A stretch of DNA of 48,913 nucleotides, the filler included, from Sphacelaria rigidula (lineage: Eukaryota), in NCBI GenBank assembly GCA_964200075.2. It is 2 parts of 2 records of this genome, joined end to end, with 100 filler letters (N's around TTAATTAATTAA, not from the genome) between each part and the next. Parts side by side here need not be neighbours in the genome. Positions count along the whole stretch, not along the records: positions 1 to 24,417 come from CAXNAA020000205.1; 1 more part is not named here. One strand, given 5' to 3'. Every line of letters begins with the position of its first letter. Within the stretch, counting starts at the first letter, position 1. The translations under genes and the position numbers were made by a program. Of the stretch, positions 13,101-40,400 are shown piece by piece. The notes beneath the pieces are model-generated. The model made no database searches. It was not told the origin of the DNA and saw only the letters and a list, made by a program, of their open reading frames with translations.

Positions 13101-16100
13101 TATCGGCTTATTTTCTTTAACCCCGCTCCCCGCAATCATCCCTACTAGGGTACAACGCGACTCACTCTCTTGAAAATTTCCATCCTTCATTCCTCGCGAG
13201 CTGTTGCTATTGTTGTGTCAGCGATGGCAGGTCCCCTACTGACAAGAGGGTTATATCCTCTTGCTTGTGGCGTACATCCGATTGTCGTAGGTCTTCGCAT
13301 CGCCACGCGTCCTCGAAGTCCTTCGCCGCTTTCTCGACCCCCAGGTGCCATCCGCCCACGCTCTTAGCGGCAGTGGCGGAGTGTTGGGAATCTTTGACGT
13401 CCACAACGTCAGCGAACCATTCCTTGCTTCTCCCTCACGTGGGACAGCCTCTAAGGCTCGCAGGTCGCCCTGGAGACGGTTCGCGGAGGGTTTGTACCAC
13501 CGGCCGGCCTCCGTGGGCCCTTGTGTGGCTAGCCGTCCAAACATGATGCGCTTTGGAAGACGTGTTTCGTCCTGGTCCTGCCGGACAAGGGCTCAAAGGC
13601 TCCCGCGAACCAGAATCGACACTTCCGGATGGTCGTCTCCATACACTCGATACACTCGATACACTCGATACACTCGATACACTCGATACACTCGATACAC
13701 TCGCAGTTGGTCATCTCGAGCACAGCTGTGTATGGAAGAGGCTTGTGTCTAGTGCGATCCTCCTTCCTGCGAAAGCCAACTAACTGCTCGCGGTAAAATC
13801 TTGTCATGGCCAGTGGGGAAGCATAGCATTCGAAGTCCTCTGGGTGCAGCGTTCATGCAGCACGTCTGTACAGTATAACTCTCACCACCTCACCACCTCC
13901 GCTTCGAGCAGTCTGATTTGCAGAGAAGTTTGGTGTTGTGCCGATCGTACGGTTGGGAACTATTAATACGAGTATACTTGGAGGCGTGGCCACGCAGGGT
14001 GACGCACGAAAACGTAAGAGAAGGAAATTAGCCGAATCAATTCGTTTCGACAAACTTCTCTGTACACTTCATTTGGATAAATAATAGTTTGCTGCACATG
14101 TATTCCCTCGAAATGTCGGATGGAGCATGACCTGTGCTATCTATCGCTGGCCGCGCCGATACCCCTCAATGATGCTGCGATTGATGAAAAACGAGTGTGT
14201 CTGGCTATGCTATTACATGAAACGCTACGAGTAGGTGAATCGTCTCATCATTTTTTCTCGTTTGACTTTGAACAACAACACAGCATGAACCGTGTTGGGG
14301 ATGTTGGTGCTGCAGCCTTGGCCGACGCATTTCGGAGTCCGTTGTGCACCCTGGCCAGGCTAGACCTGAGATACAACCAGGTAAAGTGAATGAGTGCATG
14401 ACACATACAGTCGCACGTTTCCGTCTCTACCTTTCTTGTTGTGTTCATTCCATTTGAGATGGTTCACTGTCCGCGAAGAATTGGTGTACTTCCTCTTATA
14501 CTTTCTCTGCCTCATAACTTAGGGTACCTGAATTTGTGCGGGCCCTCAGCCGTGCCCGATCTATGTTTCGATTGTTTCGTTTAAATCTTCGTTATTTTTT
14601 CAGTAAAAAACATGTTTGTTTGTTCTTCAGCTGATGCTTGAACCATGCGGCCGAACGGCCGAAAAAAAATCAGTCGGCCCAATAATGGCGTAAATCACGC
14701 CCTTCCCACGGGACTGCATGGCCATCGCAATCTCTACCACCATTGCGTAGCGGCCACCAACCGATATCTCGGTGCCCCGTTTGCGAGGTGGGGGTGTGCT
14801 GGGGGGCGAGTCCATCGCTAGAATGGTGTAGTGTTGCAGGTAGGGTACCAAATTTGGACGCTTTTGAGAATTTTTCGAGAATTCTCAAAAACATTATCAA
14901 AAAACATTATCAAAAATATTCCCACAATAGTCCAGAAAAGGGTAGATTTTTCTCCATTTTTGGTGAAGAAATAGAATCCCGTTTTTCATTTTTTCTCTAG
15001 CTTCGTCTTCGTTTTATCTTTCTAACAAACCCGGCTATACTATCCTCACTAACACGGTAACCCACACAGCGAATTACCCATAATTACCCTAACTTATGAG
15101 ACAGAGGAAGTATTACTCCAGTGCCTGCTCAGACAGCAACAGCGATGGACCCGTGTTGTTTCGGACACGGTACAACCAAATAGCGGAGGGCAAAAAAATT
15201 ACACTTGGAAGTACGTACCACGAGCGCGTACGTACTTTATTTAATTGTGACCTTTGATCCCACGCTATACCGCCCTCCCGCAGAATCGGCGTGTTTTCAA
15301 GAGCTTCCATCCTGGTGCGCACTAATCTATTTTCAGACCAATGGACAAGGGCGGGTATACCTACCCCCTTTCAGACTCGAAAGTGGGTGCCGTACAAATA
15401 AATGCGAAAGTTGGCGCTGCCCGTGCTACGCCCAAGCCGCTCAAAATTCGATCCCGACGCAAAGACAGCACGCCCACAGCCCATGCAGAGAGTCTGTGCA
15501 CCAAATCTCGCGAAAAATGAGCGCGATTTAGAACCAAACACCACCGCGGGGCATAACCGCTTGTGTCCGACAATCAGGTGGTCATACCCACCAACCACCG
15601 TGATGTTTACCTCGTACCCCCTTTTGTCCATTATGGTCCCCCTTTTGTCGGAAGTCTACTCACGTTCGACCACTACCGGTCCTCCAAAGTCACGCTCGAA
15701 GTCACCGCACGGAACAATATCGAATGGCCGAAGAACGTCTCGAACGCTTCATTTTACTTATTTCTACGGCCTGGAGAAGTTTGGATCTTTGGTTGTGCCG
15801 CGCGCTTGAACGTTTGAACGAATTTTTACGCGCAAGCTTTCCCTTCGTTGGGTCTTCGGTTGTGTGCTGCGCGTTTCAATTAGTTGTGACATGGGTTTTA
15901 CCGATTGCAACCCCTATGGTTGATCCACGAGGGACCCAAACGTGATGTCGGGTGGTTTCAAATCATCCGACTACCACCCATGGGGGTCGCAATTGGTAAA
16001 CCCATGTCACGACTAATTGAAACGCGCAGCACAAGCAAAAATCCAAATATCCGAGAAGGTAAGCTTGCGTGTAAAGATGCATTGCAAAGATGCATTCAAA

Positions 16101-17983
16101 CGTTGAAACGCGTAGTACACAACCGAAGACCCAACGAAGGGAAAGCTTGCGTGTAAAAATTCGTTCACACGTCAAAGCGCGCGGCACAACCAAAGATCCA
16201 AACTTCTCCAGGCCGTAGAAAGGAGTAAAATGAAGCGTTCGAGACGTTCTTCGGCCATTCGATATTGTTTCGTGCGGTGACTTCGAGCGTGGCTTTGGAG
16301 GACCGGTAGTGGTCGAACGTGAGTAGACTTCCGACAAAAGGGGGACCATAATGGACAAAAGGGGGTACGAGGTAAACATCACAGTGGTTGGTGGGTATGA
16401 CCATCTGATTGTCGGACACAAGCGGTTATGCCCCGCGGTGGTGTTTGGTTCTAAATCGCGCTCATTTTTCGCGAGAGTTGGTGCACAGACTCTCTGCATG
16501 GGCTGTGGGCGTGCTGTCTTTGCGTCGGGATCGAATTTTGAGCGGCTTGGGCGTAGCACGGGCAGCGCCAACTTTCGCATTTATTTGTACGGTACCCGCT
16601 TTCGAGTCTGAAAGGGGGTAGGTATACCCGCCCTTATCCGTTGGCCTAAAGATATTACCATACAGTTCAGTTGACGTTGATGTGAAGATAAAGTACGACT
16701 CCCAAGTTGTCATGGTCATGTCCTCACCATACTATCACTACAGAACAGCCATGTCAGCACAAGTTCGCAGCAGTTATACAGCATGTGTATCTACTCTGCT
16801 CCCTCCTCCCTCTGTTGCGATGATGGATGATGGATGATGGTGAGGTGTCATACTCACGTCAATGTGAATGTGAATGTGAATGTCTTGTGTACTGTATTGC
16901 AGATCAGCATGAGAGGTGTACAGCTACTATCGGAGGCCCTCGAGAAAGCCAAGGACCGTGGGGTCGAGCATGTGTACGTTCATAGCCAAGGGCGGATAGA
17001 CGCGTTGGGCACCAAACTCCAAGGTTCACAAGTAAGACAAAAGTCGACACGAGAGCCGAAGTTGCCTAACCACACGGGGATCGCAGTCACATCACCCCTC
17101 GACGTGTGCAGCGTGCACAGTAAGCACGATTCCTTTCCTGTAATTCACATCGAGATGCCACCAATTCAGTTTTTATATTTGTACAAAACAAGTAGCCGCC
17201 TAGGACATGCAGTATCAACCACGCTGAAAGCCATATGGTGATTGTTTTGAATTTTGAAGGGTAGATGTGACAACGGCGTGAGAGAGTGAACGTTATCCAT
17301 CAAGTATAAACGGTCCTTTTTTCAGTTGCTGGCCTCGCTCGTGCCAGTCGCTTGTATGCTGCTTACCGTACCTTACCGTATGTAGTGTCAACAACATTGC
17401 GAGTACTACTTAGTACTTCACACTTTTCACGTACCCCTTGATACATAACTTAGCATATCATAACATAATATAGCGTAAGATAGCGTAAGATGGTGTAAGA
17501 TGGCGTGAGATCACGTAAGATAGAAAGTGCCAGGTAACCTGTGGGCATGATGTGTGAAAGGCGTGAAACACAAGACTCTCCTGGGGTGTTGTAGACATAC
17601 TTTACTCACCTGCTAATACTCGTACTTCGAAGTATATAATCCACATAAATTTCGTTCCCGCGAGACCATAGACCATAGAGCAGTGACGCTGACATTGACA
17701 TGCCGATAAGGCGAAGCACAGCGTCGCTATGCCTTGAAGGCGAACTTTCCCGACAAGTTTTACTTGAGTACTCTGACAGCACCGATCGGCCTATCCGATG
17801 CCAGACAAAAAAAAAAGCAGTTGCGTGAACTGCGCTGGAAGCATGTCAGATATTCTCGGTGAGATCTGAACAAGATATAAATGTTCAGAAGCAAATAAAC
17901 TACCGAACAATTGCACGTGAAGTGTCAATTGTTCCTGTACTACATCACACGTCAACCGGATGGTATGGTCTTTACATATAATT

Positions 17984-20515: not shown

Positions 20516-22175
20516 ATATCACGGCCGGAGTGCGGTTCGGTCTAGTCTGCTTCGGTCCCTCGAACCCTCTGCTTTTTGTGCCCGTCCCGGTCCCGTGATG
20601 TCGGGTCGTGTTCGGTCTACCTCGCAACAAAGCAACAAAGCAACAAAGCGACAAATCGACAAAGCGACAAAAGACTGCCGGGGCGTGTCCGGCGCATGTC
20701 ATGCCGACGTAAACATCTCGCCTGCCTCTGACCTCAGCCATTCCACCTTCAGGTGGCCCGAAAGGTACCTTCGACCAGTACCATTTGCGAGTATTATGTG
20801 CAATTTTGACCTCGGCTCGCCCCCATACAAAAATCTCGTTTCCAATTTTTCAGGATCCCGTGATACTCTGGATTATGGTCATTCTACAGTACTGTACTCG
20901 TAGTAGCATCGTCATTCCGACCTTCGGGTTGTGTTTTGGTATGCAGTTGGCACGTGACGTACTGCGTTTGGATGTCAGCTAACCACCGAAGAAGAGCCCG
21001 CCGCTATACTATTTACTGATAGGGACAACGCTTATCATCAACTTGCTGTTTTAACCTTAACCATGGCTATGCTTCGACTTGGTGTTTTGACCTTCAACTT
21101 CATCGTTTCCATTCCGTAAGGTAGGGGATAGCGTGCAGTCTCCTCTTGAGTTGAGCCTCACTTATTAGTTCAAATTCCATACGCGTGCGGACTAGGGCCC
21201 ACTCAGCTCCTATCCACCTATTTCCCATGTTCTTTCCTGGCAGCAGCGGATCTACGGAGATCTGGTATTTACAGTTTATTCATTCTTCAGCAAAGTTCGC
21301 GGAAATATCGAGCGTACGTGCCCATTGCATTTGAGCCACCTTTTTGAGCCACCTTTGCCAAAGCCCTGGGATGCCGCGTGGGTACTGCATCCTAGAAATA
21401 CTGCCTGTACGGAGTGGGCAAACGCAGCTACCAAAGCGTGCCAGTCATTTATGGAGCATTGTAGGTATCCCATATTTCCGTCTTTCCACCGCCGCCAGGG
21501 ATCAACGTCGAACAGCATTCATTATAAAGGAATTTGTCCCCGTTCGCGTTACGTAATTCCGGCTGCCTGGGCACCGTGGGTCATGTGCAGAGTTTGCTAT
21601 AACTGGTGATGCCCCACCAATGTGCGATATTCGCGTGCAATTCTCCAATGCAGTTTTTGTGTTCATCATGCTGCCATCGCTGTGCGTCACCGTGGTATTC
21701 GCGGACTCGAAGACTTGAACACTTGAAGAAGTCGGGGACCTAGTGTTCGCGTGATGGCTGTCCCTACTCCTATCTCTATTCCTATTGGTATTAGTATTCG
21801 TTGGCGCACGAGGGTCAAACGCCAGGGGTGAGAAAATCCAAAAATAATGAAAAAATGGCAAGGCTTAGGCCTGAGGAGTGAATGAGTCGGATAGACGGAC
21901 ATACGAACAGACAGACACATTGTTATGCTCCGTCATAGAGATCTCCAGTGTACTACTGAAGACCCTGCTGTCATTCTCCTCGGAGCGGTGTACTTATTTC
22001 TCGGGAAGTGAGTGTTTGAGCACAACGTGTTCGAGGTGTGAAACACGCCAACTTCGGTCCACTTTTCGTCTGTGTCCGTGACGATTGACCTGAAAATAAA
22101 AGTGTTACAATTAACCTTCGTTCGACCGGATGAAACGAACGCTTGTCCCACCTTGTACACCCTATCTCTCTCTCT

Positions 22176-23322
22176 AACGGGGTATAGCACCCCCACCCCG
22201 CTTGCCCCCCGGCCGGGGCCGAGTCTGAGCCCATAACGAGCGCACCAGGCCACGGCAGAGTAGGAGGGGTGGTGTAGAGGCACAACTCAGCAGTGTACTG
22301 ATGATTTAGTGCGCTGGTGAGGTTGTGCAGACGGAGGATGTGACGCATGGTGCAGCGGACCTACCGGTCCCCGCGGCAGAGTTGCCTGCGGTAGCTACAC
22401 CGAGCCACCGTCGCGGAAAGCGTGGTACACGTAGCCTGAGGAGCAGAGAGGCGAGAAAATTCCATGTTAGTCGGCACCAATGCCGACAGGTCGGAGGTGA
22501 ATACCGATGTACAGTAGTGGGCGGTCTAACTTTTCATTTTGTGTCATTTTGAGATTTTTTCGTGATTGGTGTTTTCTTGGACTCTTTTCGCGCGCCACCC
22601 CCTATCACATCGGGAGTCTGAAGATATCTGTATTCGCTCCACATTCCAAGAAGAAAAAATCGTCTTTACTCAATATTGAGTGACTTGCGGGCTGATCCGT
22701 CATCGGGGGTCCTGCCACGTTTCAGCCCAGACTCTTACTCTTTTGTATTTTCGGTCGATCGAGCCCGTCTCAATCAAATTTGCAGAGAAATGTACAGTTT
22801 TCTTTTTTCGAAATTCTGCCTACTCAGTGCGCCAGGGCCGAAAAACTGTGTTTCGCGGTCAATAACACCCTCCTGATGAACGGGGAATTTACTCGTTTTG
22901 CCCCATAACACCAAGTAACACTGACTTGGGCACTGTGTTTCGAAAATGATCTGTTTTGTTGTACCAAAATCTACCGAAGCTAACAATTTCGAGCTTTTTC
23001 GAAGAGTAGTACGCGAGGAAAACCCCGAAACATCCCTAAATAGCTAGACCGCCCACTACTGTAGGCAGGGAGAGCGGTACCCTGTCCTTTAAAACCAAGG
23101 CACGAACCGTGCTAGGCTGAGATAGATGAAGAGGAAAACAATGAATTGAAAGAAACAAGAGGATATCGGCCCTTACGTGTAGCGGACCGACAGAGACAAG
23201 CAAACACCAGGGTAAAACCACGCGTGGGCGAGCTGACTACGGGTACCTTCAACGTCCGAACACTCCCTTACAGCCGCAAGAACCCATCGGCCACAACATT
23301 ACAATCGCCATCCAATGTAGTG
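22176..23322 (+). mobile_element. 5' end of an RTE-type LINE (GC-rich leader + start of the APE endonuclease), split by a MITE
   Basis: 23221-23270 encodes RVGELTTGTFNVRTL, the APE N-terminal motif (L-x-I/V-G-T-W/F-N-V-R-T-L). The 5' boundary is approximate. Confidence 0.65.
22512..23061. mobile_element. Tc1/mariner-type MITE
   Basis: TIR cagtagtgggcggtcta / tagaccgcccactactg; TA duplicated at 22510-22511 and 23062-23063. Confidence 0.9.
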
Positions 23323-23325
23323 TAG

Positions 23326-23595
23326 TCTGGGCGAGTATTTGCTAGGCACATTTACTTGTGGACAGTTGGGTGTACTCAAGTGAATACTGGGAAGGGCACT
23401 CATGGATCCACCAAGTACGGGAAGTCAGGAGGAGAGGGGAAATCTAGGGCGCTGAATCTTCTGTTGGAGGTTTTCAACGGTACTATATTTCCTCTTAGCA
23501 GAGACTACATGAAGGAAGGATCACTTAAGGACATGGGTCTAGAGGCTATAATGTCTGGCAGAAGAGTCACTTACGGAGAGTCTACACTGCCGAGT
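23326..23595 (+). pseudogene. Fragment resembling a viral SF3 / D5-type primase-helicase P-loop region
   Basis: Stop-free, intronless SGRVFARHIYLWTVGC...YGKSGGEGKSRALNLLLEVFNG...EAIMSGRRVTYGE: Walker A-like and a G[KR]RhhhxE Walker B-like motif at D5-like spacing. Confidence 0.55.
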
Positions 23596-23635
23596 AACTT
23601 GAGGATCAACTTGAGGATCAACTTGAGGATCAACT

Positions 23636-23700
23636 GTCTCTCATGAGACCACGGCTGGACCCTGGGGAGTCAGTCAAAGCGCGACAATTAATAAAAAAAA
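23636..23700 (+). mobile_element. RTE LINE 3' terminus
   Basis: tctctcatgagaccacggctggaccctggggagtcagtcaaagcgcgacaattaataaaaaaaa, close to the 8870-8945 copy. Confidence 0.75.
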
Positions 23701-23769
23701 CTTCTGTTCCGAGACCAGCTGTGACGTCATCCTTCTCCAAGACACCAGGCGTGAGGAATACAATACTTT

Positions 23770-24200
23770 GCACCTGAAATAGGGGAGTTTTGGAAATTTT
23801 TGTAGTCGGCGATTTTCGATTGTGTTTTTTTCGCGTGCCACCGCTTATCCCAGAGAACGTTTGATCCCAAAGCTTGGGGATCGAAAGATACTAGAGATGC
23901 GCTCCACATTCCAAAACGAAATAATATCTGCACTCAATCTTGAACAGCTTACGGGCTGACCGGTTTCCGGGGGTCCTGCTACTACCCAGCCCCAGGTTCT
24001 GACCTTTAGGTATTCTTGCTCGATTGAAGCAATCCCGATCGTTCTCGCGGAGAAATAAAAAATAACATGTTTTTGCATTTTTATCTGTTCATTGCGCTGG
24101 AGCGGAAAAGCTGCGTTGTTTGGGCCAGTGACGGTCGATAGCACCCCCTGATAAACGAGGTATTTACACCGTACCCCCCCCCGACAATATCAATTGAGGA
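23770..24200. mobile_element. Diverged relative of the interior of the 22512-23061 MITE
   Basis: Shared colinear blocks cgctccacattccaa, actcaat.ttga, cgggctga..cgggggtcctgc, ccc.ctgat.aacg.gg.attta; ends not defined. Confidence 0.55.
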
Positions 24201-24417
24201 TTGTGCCCTGGGTGCGACCTGCTTCTTTTCTAAATTTTCATCGACGCAAGAGCTTTCGAGTGCTGAAGAAGAATATCATACGAGAAAAATTCAGAAAAGT
24301 ACCCAACTACGAAGATTGCCCAGCCAAGCTTTGCACCGCACAGGGGGGGGGGGGGGGGGCTTCTGGGGGGGGGGGTGGGGGTTGTTCATTTTTTGTTTTC
24401 CCTTGTTGTTTAGGCTG

Positions 24418-24517
24418 NNNNNNNNNNNNNNNNNNNNNNNNNNNNNNNNNNNNNNNNNNNNTTAATTAATTAANNNNNNNNNNNNNNNNNNNNNNNNNNN
24501 NNNNNNNNNNNNNNNNN
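24418..24517. other. Artificial scaffold linker N44-TTAATTAATTAA-N44
   Basis: Exactly 100 bp, symmetric, with a six-frame stop 12-mer at 24462-24473; homopolymer-rich flanks typical of contig ends. Confidence 0.95.
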
Positions 24518-25919
24518 GTTGGGGCCGTCCATTTTTTTTCTCTTTCGTTTCTTTCCCCCCGGCGGGCCAATTTTCGTTCCTTCCCCCCGCCCCCCCCCCC
24601 CCCCCTGTCCTTTTTATGTGGCCGAGCTGCTTGCTGCTGAGATCGTCACCTGTACGTTCGCTTGTAGGTAAGGTGGGGGAAGGGATATTTCATTTCGTGA
24701 TCCGATGAGACGGTGTTTTCTCCACGGCTGTGAGACGCGTACGTAGATAACCTATACTACAAGTATGCCACGCGTTCGGTGGTCGTCGGTACTGTCGCAG
24801 TACATGAGAGTACCACGGCAACCGTACAAGCATGCGAGTTATGCCGGCTGATGACAAAACAATGCATGATGCAGGCTCTGCCGCCGAAGGAACGGACTTT
24901 CCTTCAACCCGTTCTAACTGGCGATATATCGCGAGTTATGCCCACCATGACACATAGTGGTGATCTACATATCAGCGCGCGTCTTTTTATCTACGTAGCA
25001 CTGCGATCCGACAAGTTCCCTTCGAACGAAATACCAAACTGCAGTCAGCTGCGAAGTGTAGAGAGTCGAGGGTGACATGTGCGGCGGAATCAGGGCAAAA
25101 AAACGGCTGCAATCGTATTTTCGGTTACAGTCGGTTGTGCCCGCGGCCGCAAAGTGGTGGTGTTGCACAAATTGTGGTTGTATAATAATGCATGTCCTGT
25201 AGGCGCGCAGTGTCTGAAATGGCATGCAGACAAGGCCTCCAGCGCGCCAAGGAGTCTAGTACTACTGTATAGTGTGCGAACCGGTGAGCAGTGAGTGAAA
25301 AGAGCCTGTAGAGAACGTCAAGGTTCCGGCAGAGGTTATACTCTGAAAACGAGTCAACCGGTTCTCAACAGAGAAGCGCGGTTACGCTGCTCAATTTTGA
25401 GTCGTTTACTACAATCTCTTGACACGTTGTACAAAAAATATGTGCAAAGTCCCTACGGTTATCCCTTCACTCCTTCGTTCAGTTTTCGGTAATCCAAATT
25501 TCGGAACAATTTTCCCGGGATAAAATCCTCGATAACTCGTTGAAAAAAAGTCAAGGAGGGGGGGGGGGGGGGGGTTAGGGTCTTTGAACATAGCTCAAGC
25601 ACATCGTGTCAAAATTTCAGGGAAAACACCTCGAAATTGAACAGCGTCACCGCGGTTCAGATTTTCCTGTTCCCGTTGTGGCTGGTCCATCGCCACATGG
25701 GAACCGGTTTTTGACACGAAGACGCAGTAATACTGCTCGGTTTCGGGTCGTTTAAAATGAAATTTTGACACGATGTACAGGACGTATGTGCAACCATTTT
25801 CCCTCCCCTACATTGTCTTTTTTTCGGGACTTGTTGGCGACGGAACATTTCGGAACAGGTGTTTGCCACTAAATCGCAAATAACTCGCAGAGAAAAAATG
25901 ATGTGGGGAAGGAATATTG

Positions 25920-28404: not shown

Positions 28405-29765
28405 GGGCAGGTCGAGTAGAGTATTTTCAATACTCAGTATCTTCGAAGAAAGATACTTCTAGTACTCAGATTTTCAAATTTGACTACAGGCTGGGCCGGC
28501 CGCCGGAGAAGCGGACTTTCCTTCAGCCGGTTCTAACTGATGATCTATTGCGAGTTGTGCCTACTATGACACATCGTGGTAATTTGCAAATCAACGCGCG
28601 TCTTTCACTTCACGTAGCACTGCGATCTGCAAGTTCCTATCAAACGAAATACCAAACTGCAGTCAGCTGCGAAGTATATAGAGTTGAGGCTGGCATGTGC
28701 GGCGGAATTAGGGGGGGAAACCGGCTGAAATCACATTTACGCTACAGATAGTTGTGCCGCGGCCGCAAAGTGATGGTGCTGTACTAGTTGTGGTTGTACA
28801 ACAAGGCATGTCGTGCTGTAGGCGCGCAGTGTCTGAGATGGCAGGCAGACGAGACCTCCAGCGCGCCAAGGCGTCGCGCTTGTAGAAAACGGCAAGTTCC
28901 GGCCGAGGTTATTGTACTCTAAAAGCAAGTGAACGGATTCTCCACAGAAAAACGCGATTTCACTGCTCAATTTCAAGTCATTTTCCATGAAATTTTGACA
29001 CGATATACATTTGGTACATGTGAAGCCCCTACCGTTTACCCCTCTTCTTTTTATGACTTTCCTCGTATGTTATTGGTGATCTAAATTTCGGAACATTTTT
29101 CCGGGTACAAAAGCGTCGACAACTCATTGAAAAATAGAAAAATGTCAAGGGGCGACAATAGAGACTTCACAACATACATACCTCATGCGCATCGTGTCGG
29201 AATTTCATGAAAAAATACGTGAAATTGAACAGCATCACCGCGTTTCATTTTTTCGTGGCTATGATTCTCCACATAGAAACCAGTCTTGGACACGAACACG
29301 CGATTTAACAGCAGCTTCAGGTCGTTTTCTATGAAATTTTGGCACGATGTACAGGATGTATGGGCAAAGACGTCTCCATTTGCCCCGTACATTTTTTGTT
29401 TTTTCTCCTTGAGTTATCGTCGACCAAATATTTCAGAACATATTTTTTCGGAACAAAATCGTGAAAAACTCTAAAAAAAAATGTACGGGGAAGACGGGGG
29501 CGTCTTCGCACATACGTCCTGAACATTGTGTCAAAATTTCACAGACAACGACCCAAAAATGAGCTGCTAAATCGTGTGTTCACATCCCTGTCCGCGTCTT
29601 GGGCGGCCCAGCCTGTAGAGTATTCGAGGTCGTACTCAATCTACCCAGAATTTGAGTGGAGTATTTGAGGCCGTACTCGATCTGCCCAAAATTTGAGTAG
29701 AGTAGGAGTAAATGCTCGGGTATTTTACTCGAGTACTCAAAAGTACATGCTCTACTCGAGTGACT
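28405..29765. mobile_element. Small TACTCGAGTA-rich element hosting MITE copy A
   Basis: tcgagtagag at left and ctctactcga at right; GAGTA/TACTC-rich sequence continues on both sides of the insertion. Confidence 0.45.
28487..29615 (+). mobile_element. ~1.1-kb TA-flanked MITE family, copy A (intact)
   Basis: ta|caggctgggccg ... cggcccagcctg|ta; no coding capacity; Tc1/mariner-like CAG ends with TA TSD. Confidence 0.9.
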
Positions 29766-34400: not shown

Positions 34401-37400
34401 GTGATGGCGGTGCTCCCGTGTCCCCGTATTCGTTGTGTAGCGCGAGCTTTGTTTTCCCCGCCTTCCCCCGCGGCGGACGACATGCTTGGATTTTCTCTTT
34501 TCGATTCGTTGCTGCTCTATGAACGTTTGCGTGTTGTCTTTCTCGGCGAACGAATCCAAATTATGCACAACTTCCTCCTTTGTTTACGCGTGTACGCAGT
34601 GTGTGCATATCCCTCGTTTATGTATGCACGTGCAGCACGTGAAAACCGCGTACACCTGTCGCAGCATAGGTTTCGTCATCTGCTGTCCTCTCCCGCGATA
34701 GGCTAGGCCCATACCTCATCGGATCTTTTAACTTTCTCCGTAAAAACGCGCTCGCCCGTACGCGCTCGCCCGTATTAATAAAAGCAGTTGGTCAAGGTTT
34801 TGCGCCCGTCTAGAGGCGGACGCGTGCGGTCTAGCAAACGTGCGAGACCTCGGCGACCCGGGGATAGAAGCAACAAAAGCGGTATCTGCTATTGTTCCTA
34901 GTGCCCACACGAAGAAGACGACGGCGTCGAATGCATCTACACGCCGCGGAAGTGGAGGGACGGGGGGTAAAGCAGATCCGTGTTCTTCTCGATTCAAGCC
35001 AAAGCCAGAGTCGGCGGCGACTACCGCTGCTTTGCAGTTAGTACCCGTTCTTGCCCGAGCTGGTCTATTACGTGACAACTCCCGCATTCTCCGCGTGGTC
35101 GCTCTGTACCCGTGTCGCAGCCATGCCATCGGCAACAGTGTCATTCGCTATCCTTTCGATGAAAGGACAAAAGGAGAAGCAGCTGTGCGAACTGTCGACC
35201 GTGCTCGATGTCGTGTTGGTGGGGGTGATGGGGGCAGTGACAGGCGACGAAGTGGCCTCGGAGCGGCAAGCCAGGACGAGAGTTTGGGGGGTGACTCACA
35301 AGCGAGCGTTGTTGTGCCCGAACAAAATACGCCGCTTTGCGTTTCGGAAGTCCTTCGTAAAGCCCTCCTCCGGAGCAATCACGCCTTGCGAAGGGCCGTC
35401 CTTGGTAGGAACAACAACACTACTAACGTTGTTAATGATGACACGGGTAGGGGAACAAGCGGCGTATGCTGCGGTCAAGCGATGGGTAGTCTGTCTAGGC
35501 TGTCTTGGACGACGACGGGTTTGGATAACGCCCAGACAAGAGAAGATCATAGGCAATGTGGAGAGCACGATAATCCAGACGAAGGTGGCAGCAAGGGATC
35601 AGCTCTATGCAGCAGAGGGCCCTTCATCGGCGTGGAGAAATGCAACGTCGTCGGAGCAGATCCGCGGCTCCTCTTGAGCACGGCTGGCCTTGCGTGGGTC
35701 CTCCGACCTCCTTTTTTGGGGCAATCTGAACCCGGTCGGTCGGGTTCGGACGCTTCTCCATCGGACTGCAATGTACCATTGAAGCAACGTGCCGGCAGTA
35801 GTGGCAGCGACAGCGATCGTGATAGTAACAATGTAGGCATGATGGGCGCGAGCACGGTCGACCATTTGGGGGATCTCGCAAATCCGCCAGCGATAGCGGT
35901 GTCTCGTTTGCAGAAAGTCGGTTGCGCTGGTGTCGATTTCAACGGCAAAGATGGCTCTGATGATGAACCGCGACGCGAAGAATTGGGTCGGGAAGTCACG
36001 TGGGTGAGCGCCACGCCGGTAGGGTCGCGGGTGTATTACTGCCTTGAAGAGGCCGCATGGGCGCATGCACAACAGCAGCAAACGACGTCGACGCCCGAAG
36101 CAGAAAGACAACGTCATATGGGCACGTCTGTTGGTCCGCCGCTAGCTGTAGATACACATTTGGGCCTGACCAAGGACACGAATCCAATGAGACAGTCTGC
36201 ATCGGCGGAGCTCGATCTCGGTGATGGAAGGAGAACGCGTCGAACAACCCGCACCGATGCCCCATCGGCCTTGAGTTCGCCAGGAGCTTTTGGTCGGGAT
36301 TTCATGGTCGAGACGGAGGAGCTGGAGTCTGACGCGAAACGCGCGTCCGCAATGGTTTTCGCTAGGAACGTATCTGAGATGCTGGCGGCGGTGTACACGG
36401 AGTCGCCGGGAAGCGTGATTGCCGACCGAGAAACAAGCTGGAAGGAGAAAGAGGCGTCAAATGCACGCACCCGACAGCAGCAGCAGAAGCATCGACGTTC
36501 GTCTACCACGAAAGCCGGAAATTGGAAGTCTATCGTAGGGGATGACGGCGTGATGGCGACTACATCTAGCTGGGTGGTAGACGGGATCGCAGATAGCCAT
36601 CGTCACAGTCAACAAATTGGCTCTTCCGACAGAATCGAGCCCAGCAGACAGGTTTTGAATGCTCTCGGGGCGGTGCCAGATGTTCTTGTCGTCACCGTGA
36701 AGCTTCCAGAAGGAGAGCCGATAAGATCTCCTGAGAGTGCTGCGGCTGAGCATACATCGGTAGACTGTAGCGCAGCAAAGGCTGTGAGTGCGCCTAAACC
36801 GCGTTCGGGTGAACGTGTGGCGCGCCGAGACAAAAGTGGCAAACGTGCCACTGCTCCCGCCATCGCCTCCACCCCGGGGGTTGCAACGAGCATCGATGAA
36901 AACGCGGCGACAATCACGCCATCCGGTATGTTGCACTTCGCCCCCGCCCGTGTGCTTCAGCTTCTCGGGACGCCGCACTACCGGGAGTTCATGAGGGCTT
37001 TGCCGCAAGCGGCACACGCTAACCCTTGCCTATTACGTGGCGAGTACGACTCTACCTCTTGGTCACTGCGGCCGCCGCCTATCACCCGCCTTTACGTTGC
37101 TATGGGTGGTGGACATGCCTCGTCTTCCGCTGTAAATTATGCCGAGGGACGAGAAGGAGACCACAGCGCCGGCGAGGTGGGCGCCGTTCCATCAGCGGGG
37201 CCAGCGAAGGGATCAGTTGCCTCGATCGCGGCCGAGGACGGTCCTAACAGCAGCTATGGCAACGGGGGCGTTTCTTCTTGCAGCTTGCCACCGCGGTCGC
37301 CGTTGATCGGAGCCGTCTTGCAACCATTATCCGCACATGCGATGCGCGAGCTCTTGCAGATCTACGTCGCCACGACTCGCGGAGTGTCCCCGTCGACAGC

Positions 37401-40400
37401 CACTGTGAAGGAAAAAGGGCGACCCTTGACATCGGGGCTCTTTTTCGCCCCTTCTCCTCTTCGCGCCGCCGTTCCCACGGCAACACTCGCCAGCACGCGC
37501 TCCGACTCCGATATGGTCACCGCTGCTAGACACGAAGCAGAACATGCAAAAGGCGCCAGGGGTCAAGCGACCGCCGCGTGTGAGCTGCAGCGACGGCGTC
37601 GACGGCCGTCCAGCTCCTCCCGTGAGTCCAAGTCAGCTTTGAAGATTACTCCCCCGAGGCCGTCGACGGACACCTTATCCCGGTCCAGCCATGACGAAGC
37701 CTCAGCGGTGTCGCGATGCCATAGCGTGGCGGATCCCAGGTTGTCGGTGTGGGAAGATACGCCGTCTGCCGCAACAGCAACTTTGTCAGGGACGGGGAGT
37801 TGCTTGACAAGTAGGTCGAGAAGCTCCGACGAAGACGACGGGGCAGAGCGAAGCACGGCCGTTACTTGCGGTGAGGATTTTTGTTACTATGATCCCGTAG
37901 CTGCCGTACCACCATCGGCGCTGGACATAATCCCTGACTCCCCACGTCTGTGCGAAAGTTCTTCCGGGCATTTGATTACCTCAGCTCTAGGCGAAAGTAT
38001 CACGACCGGAGGTCGGTGCGGTATAGCCGACAGCATTACCACCGACAACATTATCGCATCATCGCTTCGCAGGCGGTACCGCCGCGCTTACGTTGCAGTA
38101 CTGGCACCGCTGACGGTGACAGCCGTCGGTAGGGTCGGCCCTTCCAAGGCAGTGCCCGCCTCCGACATCGGGTTGCCCGGTGCTTCGGCGTATTTTTTGC
38201 AGCTCGAGGAGGCGGCCGACACCGCGTTCTATGAAGAAATGCGAAACTCAGATCTCCGTTGTTGTGAAGGTGCCGTTGGCCGTGCGGAGTGCGGACGCGT
38301 AAGCGGGGGTGGCGATGTAGGCGGGGGTGATGCGGGAAGGGGAACGAAGGGGGCAGAGTCACGGGCGGGAAGTGGTGTGCCGATCGTGTGCGTGTGGCGG
38401 GGTTGTCTGTCTGACGCTCAGTTCGGGTGAGTTGTTCTTATTCGGGTTTTCGCCGGTGATCATTTGTTTTCGGAATATTTAGGGATGAACGATCGACACG
38501 AACTTGAATACCTCTTCAGATTATCGTATTTTCCTGATGCGTTTTCGCCGCTTGCCCCGATTGACACCAGCACACAGGTTCTGGCGCAGTCATATTTTTT
38601 TCCCGAGTACACGGGCTCGGTGACGTGCAATGGAGAATGATTTTGTGATGGGCGCTTCAGTTGAATGCATGGTCGTGTTGGTCCAGTAGAAGCTGACGTT
38701 TTCTCGGCGCGTATCGGATCGGTGACACATGTACCGAACAGGTCGTCATTATGCTCGGTGCACTTGCAGCTGAAAGACTTCTTGGACGTCAAATCTGCGA
38801 AGGTGAGTGGAGTCCATCCCAGGTTTTATCCGATGGAGCACAGGCTGGGCCGCCCAAGACGCGGACAGGGATGTGAACAAGCGATTTAACAGCTCAATTT
38901 TTGGCTCGATTCCCATGAAATTTTGACACGATGTACAGGATGTATGTAGGAAGACTCTATCTTCTGCCCCCTACATTTTATTTTTTTCGGGAGCTATTCA
39001 CGATTTTGTTCCGAAGTAAACTGTTTTGAAGTTTTTGATCGCCGATAACTCACGGAGGTGAAGAACAAATGTATGGGGCAGAAAGTCGAGTCTTTGCACA
39101 TACATCCTGTATGTCGTGTCAAAATGTTATACAAAATGACTTGAAATTGAGATGTCAAATCGCGTGTTCGTGTCGAAGACCGGTTTCTATGTGGAGATGG
39201 ACAAGCCACGAAAAAATCAAACGCGGTTATGCTGTTCAATTTCGAGTATTTTTCCACGAAATTTCGACACGGTGTGCATGAGGTATGTTGTGAAATCCCT
39301 AGTTTCCCCCCTTGAATTTTTTTCCTTCAACGAGTCGTCGACGCTTTTGTACCAGGAAAAATGTTCCGAAATTTAGATAACCAATGTCTCACGAGGAAAA
39401 AAATAAGAGGGGGCAACGGTAGAGGCTTCACATATACCAAATGTAGATCGTGTCAAAATTTCATGGAAAACGACTTGAAATTCAGCAGTGAAATGGCGTT
39501 TTTCTGTCAAGAACCGGTTCACTTGCGTATAGAGTACAACAACCTCAGCCGGAACTTTGACGCTTTCTACAAGCGCGACGCCTTTGCGCGCCGGAGGTCT
39601 GGTCTGCGTGCCATCTCAGACCCTGCGCGCCTACAGGACGGCATGCACTGTCGTACAACCACAAGTACCGCAGCACCATCACTTTGCGGCCGCGGCACAA
39701 CCGCCTGTAGCTGTAAACGCGATTTCACCTGTTTTCCCCCCCTAATTCCGCTGCACATGCCAGCCTCAACTCTCTACACTTCGCAGCTGACTACAGTTTG
39801 GTATTTCGTTTGATGGGAACTTGTCAGGTCGCAGTGCTACGTGAAGTGAAAGACGCACGTTGATTTGCATATTACCACGATGCTTCATAGTAGGTACAAC
39901 TCGCGATATATCGTCAGTTAGAACCGGCCGAAGGAAAGTCCGCTTGTTCGGCGGCCTAGCCTGTAGACTGCACACTACTTGCTTTGTTTCTCCGCGATCA
40001 CGATTTGCTATCTCGGTGATGTCGTACGAGCAGCATTCCCCTGCCCCCTCACGTGCTGCTATAATCCCTGACCCTAAATGGAGCGCAGGCGCGGACACCG
40101 AGCGAGGCTCGCCGGTTTCTTCCCCCAGGAAGCCTTGACGCGAACAAACAACAGCGACGCTCCTCTTTTCGGAAGAAACGATCCAGCTCTGTCGTGACCA
40201 ACACCACCACTTCTACCAGTGGTGGCGCTGCCTCTACCAAGAGCGGGGTTTCGGTTATTGACATGCAGCACCCTGGCGCTGAGAGTGAGGTCGCCGTGGC
40301 CTGCTCCATGTCCCCGCTCCTCGCGGAGCTTTTCAACGGCAAACTGGCGTCCACGATCTCGTTGTTTTGCCGAAGGGCGGTGGCGGAGTCGAGTGGGCGA

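Follow-up and report, generated by a model that had tools for sequence, protein, structure and literature searches.

Structure of the locus

A 48,913-nt stretch of the genome assembly of the alga Sphacelaria rigidula (GCA_964200075.2), joined from parts of two records and called here the window, contains a fragment of a helicase gene at positions 23338..23595 on the plus strand. The fragment is preceded by the apparent 5' part of an element resembling a long interspersed nuclear element (LINE) and is followed by a short tandem array and the A-tailed 3' terminus of a retroposon. The LINE-like part is itself split by a miniature inverted-repeat transposable element (MITE), and a second MITE-like element is located further downstream.

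The fragment corresponds to residues 186 to about 280 of a 453-aa relative, P0001, and carries a Walker A motif (GKSGGEGKS), a PLSRDY block, and a Walker B-like motif (VTYGE). A TAG at 23323-25 precedes it; behind this stop the same frame (frame 1) is open for 106 codons (23326-23643) and closes with a TGA (to 23646). The frame carries YGKSGGEGKSRALNLLLEVF...SGRRVTYGE, and a longer stretch of its translation reads YGKSGGEGKSRALNLLLEVFNGTIFPLSRDYMKEGSLKDMGLEAIMSGRRVTYGE. The roughly 90 stop-free codons with YGKSGGEGKS...SGRRVTYGE, which the first-pass annotation of this DNA had described behind TAG 23323, are thus present in the sequence. BLASTP comparison with P0001 revealed 43% identity over 99 aa (P0001 residues 186-284), with E-values of 3e-21 in the pairwise alignment and 3.4e-11 database-wide in a search among longer proteins.

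A profile hidden Markov model (HMM) was built from 47 proteins of the family around P0001, with the window sequence left out, and was run on all 1584 six-frame open reading frames (ORFs) of at least 20 aa in the window. It matched the frame 23326-23643 only (E 2.5e-14; profile positions 188-275 of 447; nt 23350-23613), the next-best ORF having an E-value of 1.3. Direct matches at E <1e-2 were obtained between the fragment and 58 of 140 family proteins. The likeness extends past the P-loop and includes the invariant W201, the PLSRDY block, and the RFVTYG(D/E) block. In the Walker A region, GKSGGEGKS is aligned with the family-invariant residues G221, G224, G225, G227, and K228; in the Walker B region, RRVTYGE is aligned with RFVTYGE or RFVTYGD of the relatives, R268 being invariant.

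The fragment stops at profile position 275 of 447. The motif C asparagine (N315) and the arginine finger (R329/R330) have no counterpart anywhere in the window, and the family profile revealed no second piece of the helicase gene there. The frame is a fragment of a member of this family, cannot work as a helicase, and is very probably a real internal piece, from Walker A to Walker B, of a viral-type SF3/D5 (superfamily 3, D5-type) helicase gene. The first-pass annotation had proposed such a viral-type fragment, to be checked by HMMER against D5/SF3 profiles. That check was negative when run directly on the fragment, and a Pfam search across the junction with the TAG read as X also yielded no family. 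Since these direct profile searches were negative, the link to SF3/D5 helicases needs the intermediate family, and it was borne out in this way: via P0001, the family HMM, and the fold of P0001.

The junction between the helicase piece and the retroposon is formed by a tandem array of the 12-mer (AACTTGAGGATC), present 3.3 times at 23596..23635 on the plus strand (Tandem Repeats Finder, 100% matches). The retroposon 3' terminus follows at 23636..23700 (plus strand), with an AATAAA at 23690-95 and a run of eight A at 23693-23700; the tail as such is a 62-nt segment that contains both of these features and ends at 23700. The first-pass annotation had the order of 12-mer array and A-tailed terminus right, with three units, and placed the array start at 23597 instead of 23596. 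Helicase piece and A-tailed terminus have the same orientation, and the poly(A) lies 3' of both. Another copy of the tail, severely truncated at its 5' end and 86% identical to the first, was found at 8870..8932 (plus strand), where it abuts a 10-N gap. This gap (8860-8869) has the same nine letters, TCTATCATG, on each side and looks like an unmerged scaffold overlap inside the retroposon tail rather than missing sequence.

The LINE-like element has a GC-rich leader at 22176..22509 (plus strand), 5' of the MITE, which contig depth marks as part of a low-copy element. Its 5' part continues at 23064..23319 (plus strand), where frame 1 past the MITE reads 'GELTTGTFNVRTL', in full ...RVGELTTGTFNVRTLPYSRKNPSATTLQSPSNVV, up to the TAG at 23323-25. 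The frame contains the putative endonuclease motif FNVRTL (23248-23265) and no ATG, so this LINE-like copy is degenerate. The layout described in the first-pass annotation, with the putative start of an apurinic/apyrimidinic endonuclease (APE) upstream of the helicase piece, in the same frame and with a single TAG between them, was seen in the sequence. Behind the A-run, a frame-2 stretch on the plus strand (23701..23782; NFCSETSCDVILLQDTRREEYNTLHLK, then a stop) appears to resume the endonuclease frame and includes DVILLQDT at 23723-23746.

Endonucleases of the APE type are characterized by motif I, [WF]N..[GT]L, and motif II, D..LQ[ED]T, about 16-25 residues apart. We take FNVRTL and DVILLQDT to correspond to motifs I and II of the exonuclease-endonuclease-phosphatase (EEP) fold of LINE endonucleases. 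In a search with loose patterns, each occurred once in the six frames of the 48.9-kb window, both on the plus strand and in the right order, while shuffled sequence gave 1.12 (motif I) and 0.2 (motif II) occurrences per window. DVILLQDTR was aligned by BLASTP to residues 28-36 of Escherichia coli exonuclease III (ExoIII; DVIGLQETK; E 0.029), in which FNINGL presumably lies 16 residues upstream of this segment. With the sequence from about 23303 or 23320 to 23700 removed, FNVRTL and DVILLQDT are about 20-26 codons apart, or 16-26 on a broader count, which is near the usual spacing. No reverse-transcriptase (RT) domain was seen near the locus; no window-wide scan for one was made. The first-pass annotation had taken the element for a LINE of the RTE clade, whose marks are the phylogenetic placement of RT/APE, a single ORF, and a characteristic short 3' end; here this placement is tentative.

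The low-copy LINE-like repeat signal ends by 23319. Because it stops there and because motif II is found behind the A-run on the same strand, helicase piece, array, tail, and A-run can be read as one nested insert of about 380-400 bp, behind which the LINE-like frame resumes; we consider this reading moderately probable. The tail is then probably not the 3' terminus of the same LINE, as which it had initially been annotated. The resumed frame is cut at 23775 by the second MITE-like element, and poly-G runs and assembly gaps (24418-24517) follow. The region 24340-24620 consists of long G and C homopolymer runs around two 44-N gaps separated by TTAATTAATTAA; it is probably an assembly or scaffolding artefact, which ends the traceable LINE-like element.

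The body of the first MITE is 550 bp long (22512..23061), has a 17-nt perfect terminal inverted repeat, CAGTAGTGGGCGGTCTA, and is flanked by TA at 22510-11 and 23062-63. The inverted repeats, the TA duplication, and the very high contig depth fit the TA-targeting (Stowaway/Tc1-mariner-like) type; the inverted repeats and TA confirm the TA-flanked MITE recognized in the first-pass annotation as interrupting the leader. In every run, over 100 contigs break off loosely at the borders of this MITE, 22510 and 23063/4. The second MITE-like element, 554 bp long (23775..24328), is located 700 bp downstream of the first, between 9-bp direct repeats, CTTTGCACC, at 23766-74 and 24329-37. Its core is 67% like that of the first MITE (23897-24167 vs 22632-22892), it does not have the same terminal repeats, and its contig depth is high from about 23817.

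Copy status was assessed with Logan contigs of four runs (X1, X3, X4, and X6), placed on 21900-24000 at 85% likeness; depth figures are those of run X1 unless another run is named. Summed contig depth, which is not a copy number, was 67 over the unique flank, 109-295 over the leader (22184-22467), 152-232 over the LINE-like part (23178-23319), 67.0 over the helicase piece (23320-23603, one contig), 18,526 in the tail bin (23604-23674), and up to 8x10^5 over the MITE, or about 10^4 times the unique flank. Each run had one contig over 23320-23603, at unique-flank depth. From these contrasts it follows that the helicase piece is single-copy at an identity of at least 85% in these contigs, the leader low-copy, and the tail high-copy. 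The tail is the authentic A-tailed end of a high-copy retroposon and occurs some hundreds of times in the genome. A chimeric retroposon with possible further copies, as suggested in the first-pass annotation, is not what these contigs reveal, there being no amplification of the helicase piece. The contigs of run X6 break at the leader edge (22176/22186). The joints 22353>23174 and 22390>23225, each found in one contig in X1, X3, and X4, fit paralogues without the MITE.

Contigs from three studies bridge the junctions, which answers the call of the first-pass annotation for reads across them. The contig of run X1 covers 23035-23670 with no differences; that of X3, from another study, covers 23035-23611; and that of X4 covers 23035-23408. 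The contig of X6, from a third study, spans 23416-23685 with a 12-letter gap that fits one 12-mer unit more or fewer. The X3 contig has an A>T change at 23350 and a 22-nt insertion behind 23415, flanked by TACGGG microhomology. This insertion shifts the frame, and the helicase frame is therefore not under constraint; the helicase piece is a dead, polymorphic, and decaying relic. Runs X6-X9 are RNA by guess only, and the depth of X6 (about 3.6, the same over the unique flank) says nothing on expression.

The helicase family and its carriers

When P0001 was compared exhaustively by phmmer with 1.84 billion representatives, 137 proteins were recovered at E <=1e-3, including 85 at E <=1e-10 and 32 at E <=1e-30; most of them are 430-510 aa long. 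A word-based search returned nothing besides P0001 itself. Taken by itself, P0001 matched no Pfam family and no PDB entry, and showed a weak match to DNA primase among the PHROGs (1.5e-4). Pfam DUF5906 was matched by 15 of 47 family members, with a best E-value of 2.4e-6 and all scores below or near the gathering score. The family profile matched, among PDB entries, the SaPI5 primase-helicase (7ola; 6.4e-8) as well as vaccinia D5 (8apl) and mpox E5 (8xj8), both at 4.4e-4; midasin, ABC transporters, and dynein were matched in the P-loop only. No Rep or HUH protein was present among the 60 best PDB matches of the profile.

An AlphaFold (AF2) model of P0001 calculated from the alignment had a predicted local distance difference test score (pLDDT) of 92.8 and a predicted template modelling score (pTM) of 0.91. 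In a Foldseek comparison with the PDB, the top matches were E5 of mpox virus (MPXV), PrimPol of African swine fever virus (ASFV), D5 of vaccinia virus (VACV), and the SaPI5 primase-helicase (E 7e-11 to 4e-9). The best matches in BFVD were phage helicases or primases, giant-virus D5 helicase-primases, and a virophage primase-helicase; the fold matches also included D5 of giant viruses that infect algae (e.g. Heterosigma akashiwo virus). The clusters nearest to P0001 in the ESM Atlas were DUF5906/D5_N. The assignment of the family to the SF3/D5 type is supported through its family-level profile and fold. Canonical giant-virus D5 proteins were not reached by sequence from P0001, and among the 14 long phmmer matches that were scanned (543-1134 aa) the sole canonical protein with D5_N and DUF5906 was of the Toprim type (E 2.4e-5).

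The Walker A/B core is common to this family, to the poxvirus D5/E5 primase-helicases, and to the C-terminal helicase of P4-family primases (DUF5906/D5_N; 8apl, 8xj8, 8hwh, 7ola, and 8iqi). Full-length P0001 also shares their fold, which consists of a D5N-like domain, an SF3 ATPase, and a C-terminal domain. In contrast to these proteins, members of the P0001 family comprise only about 450 aa and resemble D5 in sequence at the profile level only; no archaeo-eukaryotic-type (AEP) primase domain was detected in the scanned members of about 450 aa. The window keeps only about 90 residues of this architecture.

Source names and contig sizes were available from two sets of 10 proteins each. The named fungal carriers are the chytrids Lobulomyces, Clydaea, Zopfochytrium, and Rhizoclosmatium, the rust Melampsora, and the smut Melanopsichium. 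The Clydaea member has the UniRef name 'SF3 helicase domain-containing protein', and the Melanopsichium member (P0140), a partial protein, sits on a 1.2-Mb contig. Two partial family proteins, P0056 and P0047 (CAM9705504.1 and CAN0064192.1), were found in the brown alga Discosporangium mesarthrocarpum; they comprise 94 aa (P0001 residues 197-289) and 190 aa (residues 90-247). The 94-aa fragment corresponds to nearly the same segment, from Walker A to Walker B, as the fragment in the window, but its identity to the latter is only 36%. One protein cluster recurs on contigs of 17,442-17,456 bp, the longest contig lying in this range for six of nine members, and further family members reside on contigs of 16.2, 20.9, 23.2, 24.6, 26.0, 26.5, and 27.9 kb.

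A metagenome scan with a five-sequence alignment yielded six loci from 161 pattern matches; an earlier scan with P0003 had found nothing, and scans of IMG/VR with P0001, P0003, P0005, and alignment A4 gave nothing either. Four of the six loci have at least 10 kb of context: L001 (1-19428), L002 (1-20523), L003 (1-15318), which is almost the same as L002, and L005 (1-11344), which is more distant. In all four, the helicase gene divergently adjoins a gene for a family-B DNA polymerase (PolB; PF00136, E 1e-28 to 4e-38), and Rpb2-like (817-833 aa) and Rpb1-like ORFs are located nearby; a TFIIS zinc ribbon is additionally present in L005. The nearest matches of the polymerase are archaeal PolB, Pol delta/alpha, and poxvirus polymerases, enzymes that are not protein-primed. 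Gene models of chytrids include a helicase fused to PolB (P0052) and another one fused to an Rpb1 fragment (P0097). L001 shares its gene order with L002/L003, and all three contigs stop 8-9 kb downstream of the helicase.

The contigs of this donor type are compact and densely coded, about 13-28 kb long, with some 10 ORFs without any Pfam domain. Pfam revealed no domain at E <=5 in 20 further ORFs of these elements, and a 717-aa ORF had no usable match in the Atlas. The core gene set of Nucleocytoviricota comprises the double-jelly-roll capsid protein, the A32-type packaging ATPase, PolB, the D5 primase-helicase, and VLTF3. From this set, the donor-type loci contain a delta-like PolB and a D5-type helicase without a primase domain, and in addition the Rpb1- and Rpb2-like genes. 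Pfam searches of the 20 ORFs and an Atlas search with one ORF revealed no capsid, packaging ATPase, or VLTF3 domain, and no protein-primed polymerase (pPolB), integrase, or capsid domain was detected around the helicase. A literature search found no account of elements of about 17-28 kb with PolB, RNA polymerase, and D5-type helicase, which does not prove that none has been published. The donor gene probably belongs to a separate family of helicases of about 450 aa that is carried by compact virus-like elements.

Possible origin of the proposed insert

Template switching and nesting would together explain the locus as a whole: the helicase piece and the tail unit would have been captured together by a single template switch, and the product would have become nested in a LINE-like element. 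For this composite we see about an even balance of probabilities, and that one template-switching retrotransposition event made the insert appears slightly less secure still. In this scheme, reverse transcription would start on the 3' end of a retroposon RNA, switch template to a viral helicase mRNA, and stop within that mRNA. The cDNA would then be joined into a LINE copy without a recognizable target duplication, by target deletion or by capture at a break, and the insert would never have been amplified and would now be decaying. A single event is favoured because a short, internal, sense-oriented gene piece abuts the poly(A) end of a retroposon, without other viral sequence around. Donor mRNAs may be cytoplasmic, where LINE particles assemble, since the donors encode their own RNA polymerase.

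Several observations weigh against this reading. The 106-aa frame, when searched directly, belonged to no family in Pfam, PHROGs, or the PDB, its sole PDB match being the DH domain of a fatty-acid synthase (E 0.044). The LINE identity rests on two short motifs, the second of which was defined after the sequence was seen. No BLASTP alignment to ExoIII was obtained for the FNVRTL piece; LINE-like pieces of 69, 46, 39, and 30 aa had no endonuclease match in Pfam or the PDB; and the N-terminal 69 aa had no homologue in a search of 5.8 billion proteins. Classical target-primed insertion characteristically leaves a target-site duplication (TSD), and none was found here, the longest word shared around 23320/23700 being 5 nt (23230-23360 vs 23690-23740). 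A gapped TCTG..CGAG resemblance (23326 vs 23703) was considered as a TSD and dropped; the likeness is poor, and repeat depth shows the LINE signal to have stopped before 23320. The 12-mer array may or may not be part of the retroposon. Contig depth stands in for a copy number that it does not provide, and contigs can miss variants. Finally, intron loss is unusable as a test of an RNA intermediate because the donor genes appear intronless.

One competing explanation is the model of the first-pass annotation, a single chimeric LINE copy whose interior was replaced by viral sequence, either through two template switches or through recombination or deletion with filler, and which ends at the A-run. 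It accommodates the common orientation of leader with endonuclease start, helicase piece, and tail, the shared frame of the endonuclease start and helicase piece with one stop between them, and the combination of a low-copy leader with a high-copy tail, as expected of a 5'-truncating LINE family. However, motif II of the endonuclease is located behind the A-run, in the same strand orientation and with the expected spacing, two switches or a precise internal replacement would be needed, and nothing ties tail and leader to one family. The first-pass annotation had reported no flanking TSD, which our analysis confirmed for 23320/23700 and likewise for 22176/23700, where the longest shared word (8 nt; 22090-22260 vs 23680-23780) lies inside the tail itself; for an element delimited by the latter two positions this is a further difficulty. 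We consider this model unlikely.

Equally unlikely is an independent juxtaposition, in which a piece of viral DNA came to lie in a LINE copy, for instance as break filler or as what is left of a more extensive endogenous viral element, and an unrelated 5'-truncated tail later inserted at its 3' edge. The missing TSD would agree with this, the region is heavily nested, with two MITE-type insertions in 1.8 kb, and very short, truncated insertions of the tail occur as well (e.g. 8870-8932). Moreover, other nuclear genomes hold fragments of the helicase family, namely the two in the brown alga and the one in the smut on its 1.2-Mb contig. On the other hand, the tail landing or a deletion would have to fall exactly at the boundary between viral piece and LINE, and both parts would have come to lie in sense orientation by chance. 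The window, searched with the helicase profile, holds no other piece of the helicase gene, and donor-type PolB or RNA polymerase genes were also not seen.

As donors, the first-pass annotation had named D5 helicases of nucleocytoplasmic large DNA viruses (NCLDVs), phaeoviruses in particular, Polinton-like viruses (PLVs), and a nanovirus-type Rep; a donor among these, including Reps of circular Rep-encoding single-stranded DNA (CRESS) viruses, is very improbable. The GxxGxGK[ST] P-loop is common to all SF3 helicases, and the fold matches of P0001 include the D5 of algal giant viruses and a virophage protein. Against this, the one canonical D5 protein recovered among the scanned long phmmer matches is of the Toprim type, likeness to vaccinia D5 exists at the profile level only, the PDB profile matches considered above contained no Rep or HUH protein, and IMG/VR gave no matches. 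The neighbours of the helicase are PolB and RNA polymerase genes, with no sign of pPolB, integrase, or capsid domains. A canonical NCLDV or phaeovirus D5 is not the donor, and there is no sign of a nanovirus-type Rep; a PLV D5 is improbable on indirect grounds, namely the lack of any PLV context and of IMG/VR matches. A non-viral origin, be it an open frame arisen by chance or an exon from a host gene for a P-loop NTPase, would fit the lack of a direct family match and the presence of parts of the stretch in some of the guessed-RNA runs, but is the least probable of all in view of the profile match with aligned motifs beyond the P-loop (W201, PLSRDY, and RFVTYG), the frameshifting 22-nt insertion in another sample, the absence of motif C and everything downstream, and the coverage of the unique flank by a guessed-RNA run at equally low depth.

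Outside the locus, the window contains several other repeats and one long frame. A 552-nt inverted repeat (15328-15879 and 16103-16654; 96% complementary, with 223 nt between the arms) carries in each arm the same open frame of 135-205 aa, which has no Pfam match. Another repeat family is represented by three copies of 80-91% identity (24863-25256, 28490-28895, and, inverted, 39557-39972), with internal sub-repeats of about 340 nt at 25350-25830, 28926-29620, and 38840-39560. The GC-richest part of the window (56-60% GC) harbours an uninterrupted frame of 1228 codons at 34744-38430 (plus strand); its product is rich in Ser, Ala, and Arg and has no Pfam domain.

Relation to known systems and biological meaning

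Template switching of LINE reverse transcriptase is known to yield chimeric retrocopies, such as the U6-L1 and mRNA-L1 chimeras of mammals, and LINE-mediated endogenization of viral mRNAs is exemplified by bornavirus-like N elements. The unit in the window is likewise bipartite and 5'-truncated, with a single orientation, a retroposon with poly(A) on the 3' side, and a foreign transcribed sequence on the 5' side. It differs from these chimeras and from the bornavirus-like elements in that no TSD was found, the gene stems from a DNA virus-like element and not from an RNA virus or host RNA, a 12-mer array occupies the junction, and the host belongs to the algae. The endogenous Phaeovirus elements known from brown algae are large DNA-level integrations of whole virus genomes (PMC11890097; PMC12993054). 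They share with the window the presence of a viral DNA-replication gene sequence in an algal nuclear genome, whereas the window preserves just 270 bp of one gene, which is from another helicase family and is linked to a retroposon tail. The locus combines two known kinds of sequence, an endogenous viral fragment and a putative chimeric retrocopy.

YKP4, the helicase of zymocin-like plasmids, is an SF2 (superfamily 2) helicase. These killer/helper plasmids encode RNA polymerase genes and a protein-primed pPolB besides YKP4 (PMC13348850). The donor-type loci differ from the plasmids so described in their delta-like PF00136 PolB, their separate Rpb1- and Rpb2-like genes, and their D5-type SF3 helicase. 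Members of Mriyaviricetes possess SF3 helicases and lack both a DNA polymerase and RNA polymerase subunits (PMC11253617). Like the plasmids, they resemble the donor-type loci as compact double-stranded DNA replicons with giant-virus-type genes, while the donor-type loci have PolB and the Rpb1/Rpb2-like pair. By these features, the donor-type elements are neither mriyaviruses nor zymocin-type plasmids.

We tentatively propose that the fragment may be a fossil, retro-copied from mRNA, of a still undescribed lineage of virus-like replicons of very small size, with apparently complete contigs of about 17-28 kb, that would infect algae, chytrids, and rust fungi and would enter chromosomes via LINE reverse transcription of cytoplasmic mRNA and not by DNA integration; this remains a doubtful proposal. 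If true, such replicons would combine a giant-virus-like information core (delta-like PolB, RNA polymerase of the two-subunit type, and a primase-less D5-type helicase) with a genome a tenth of the usual size.

In annotating the S. rigidula genome, the locus should be treated as a dead relic and not as a gene. It is an algal case of a DNA-virus-type gene in a nuclear genome that is bound to a retroposon tail, and it points to reverse transcription of viral mRNA as a route of endogenization beside the whole-genome integration of phaeoviruses. The locus is of value mainly because it leads to a little-known helicase family that marks compact elements with PolB and RNA polymerase genes in soil metagenomes and fungal assemblies, and because it hints that such elements may reach host chromosomes by way of retroposon machinery. 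If these donor elements prove to be a distinct virus group, fragments such as this one would record its past host range.

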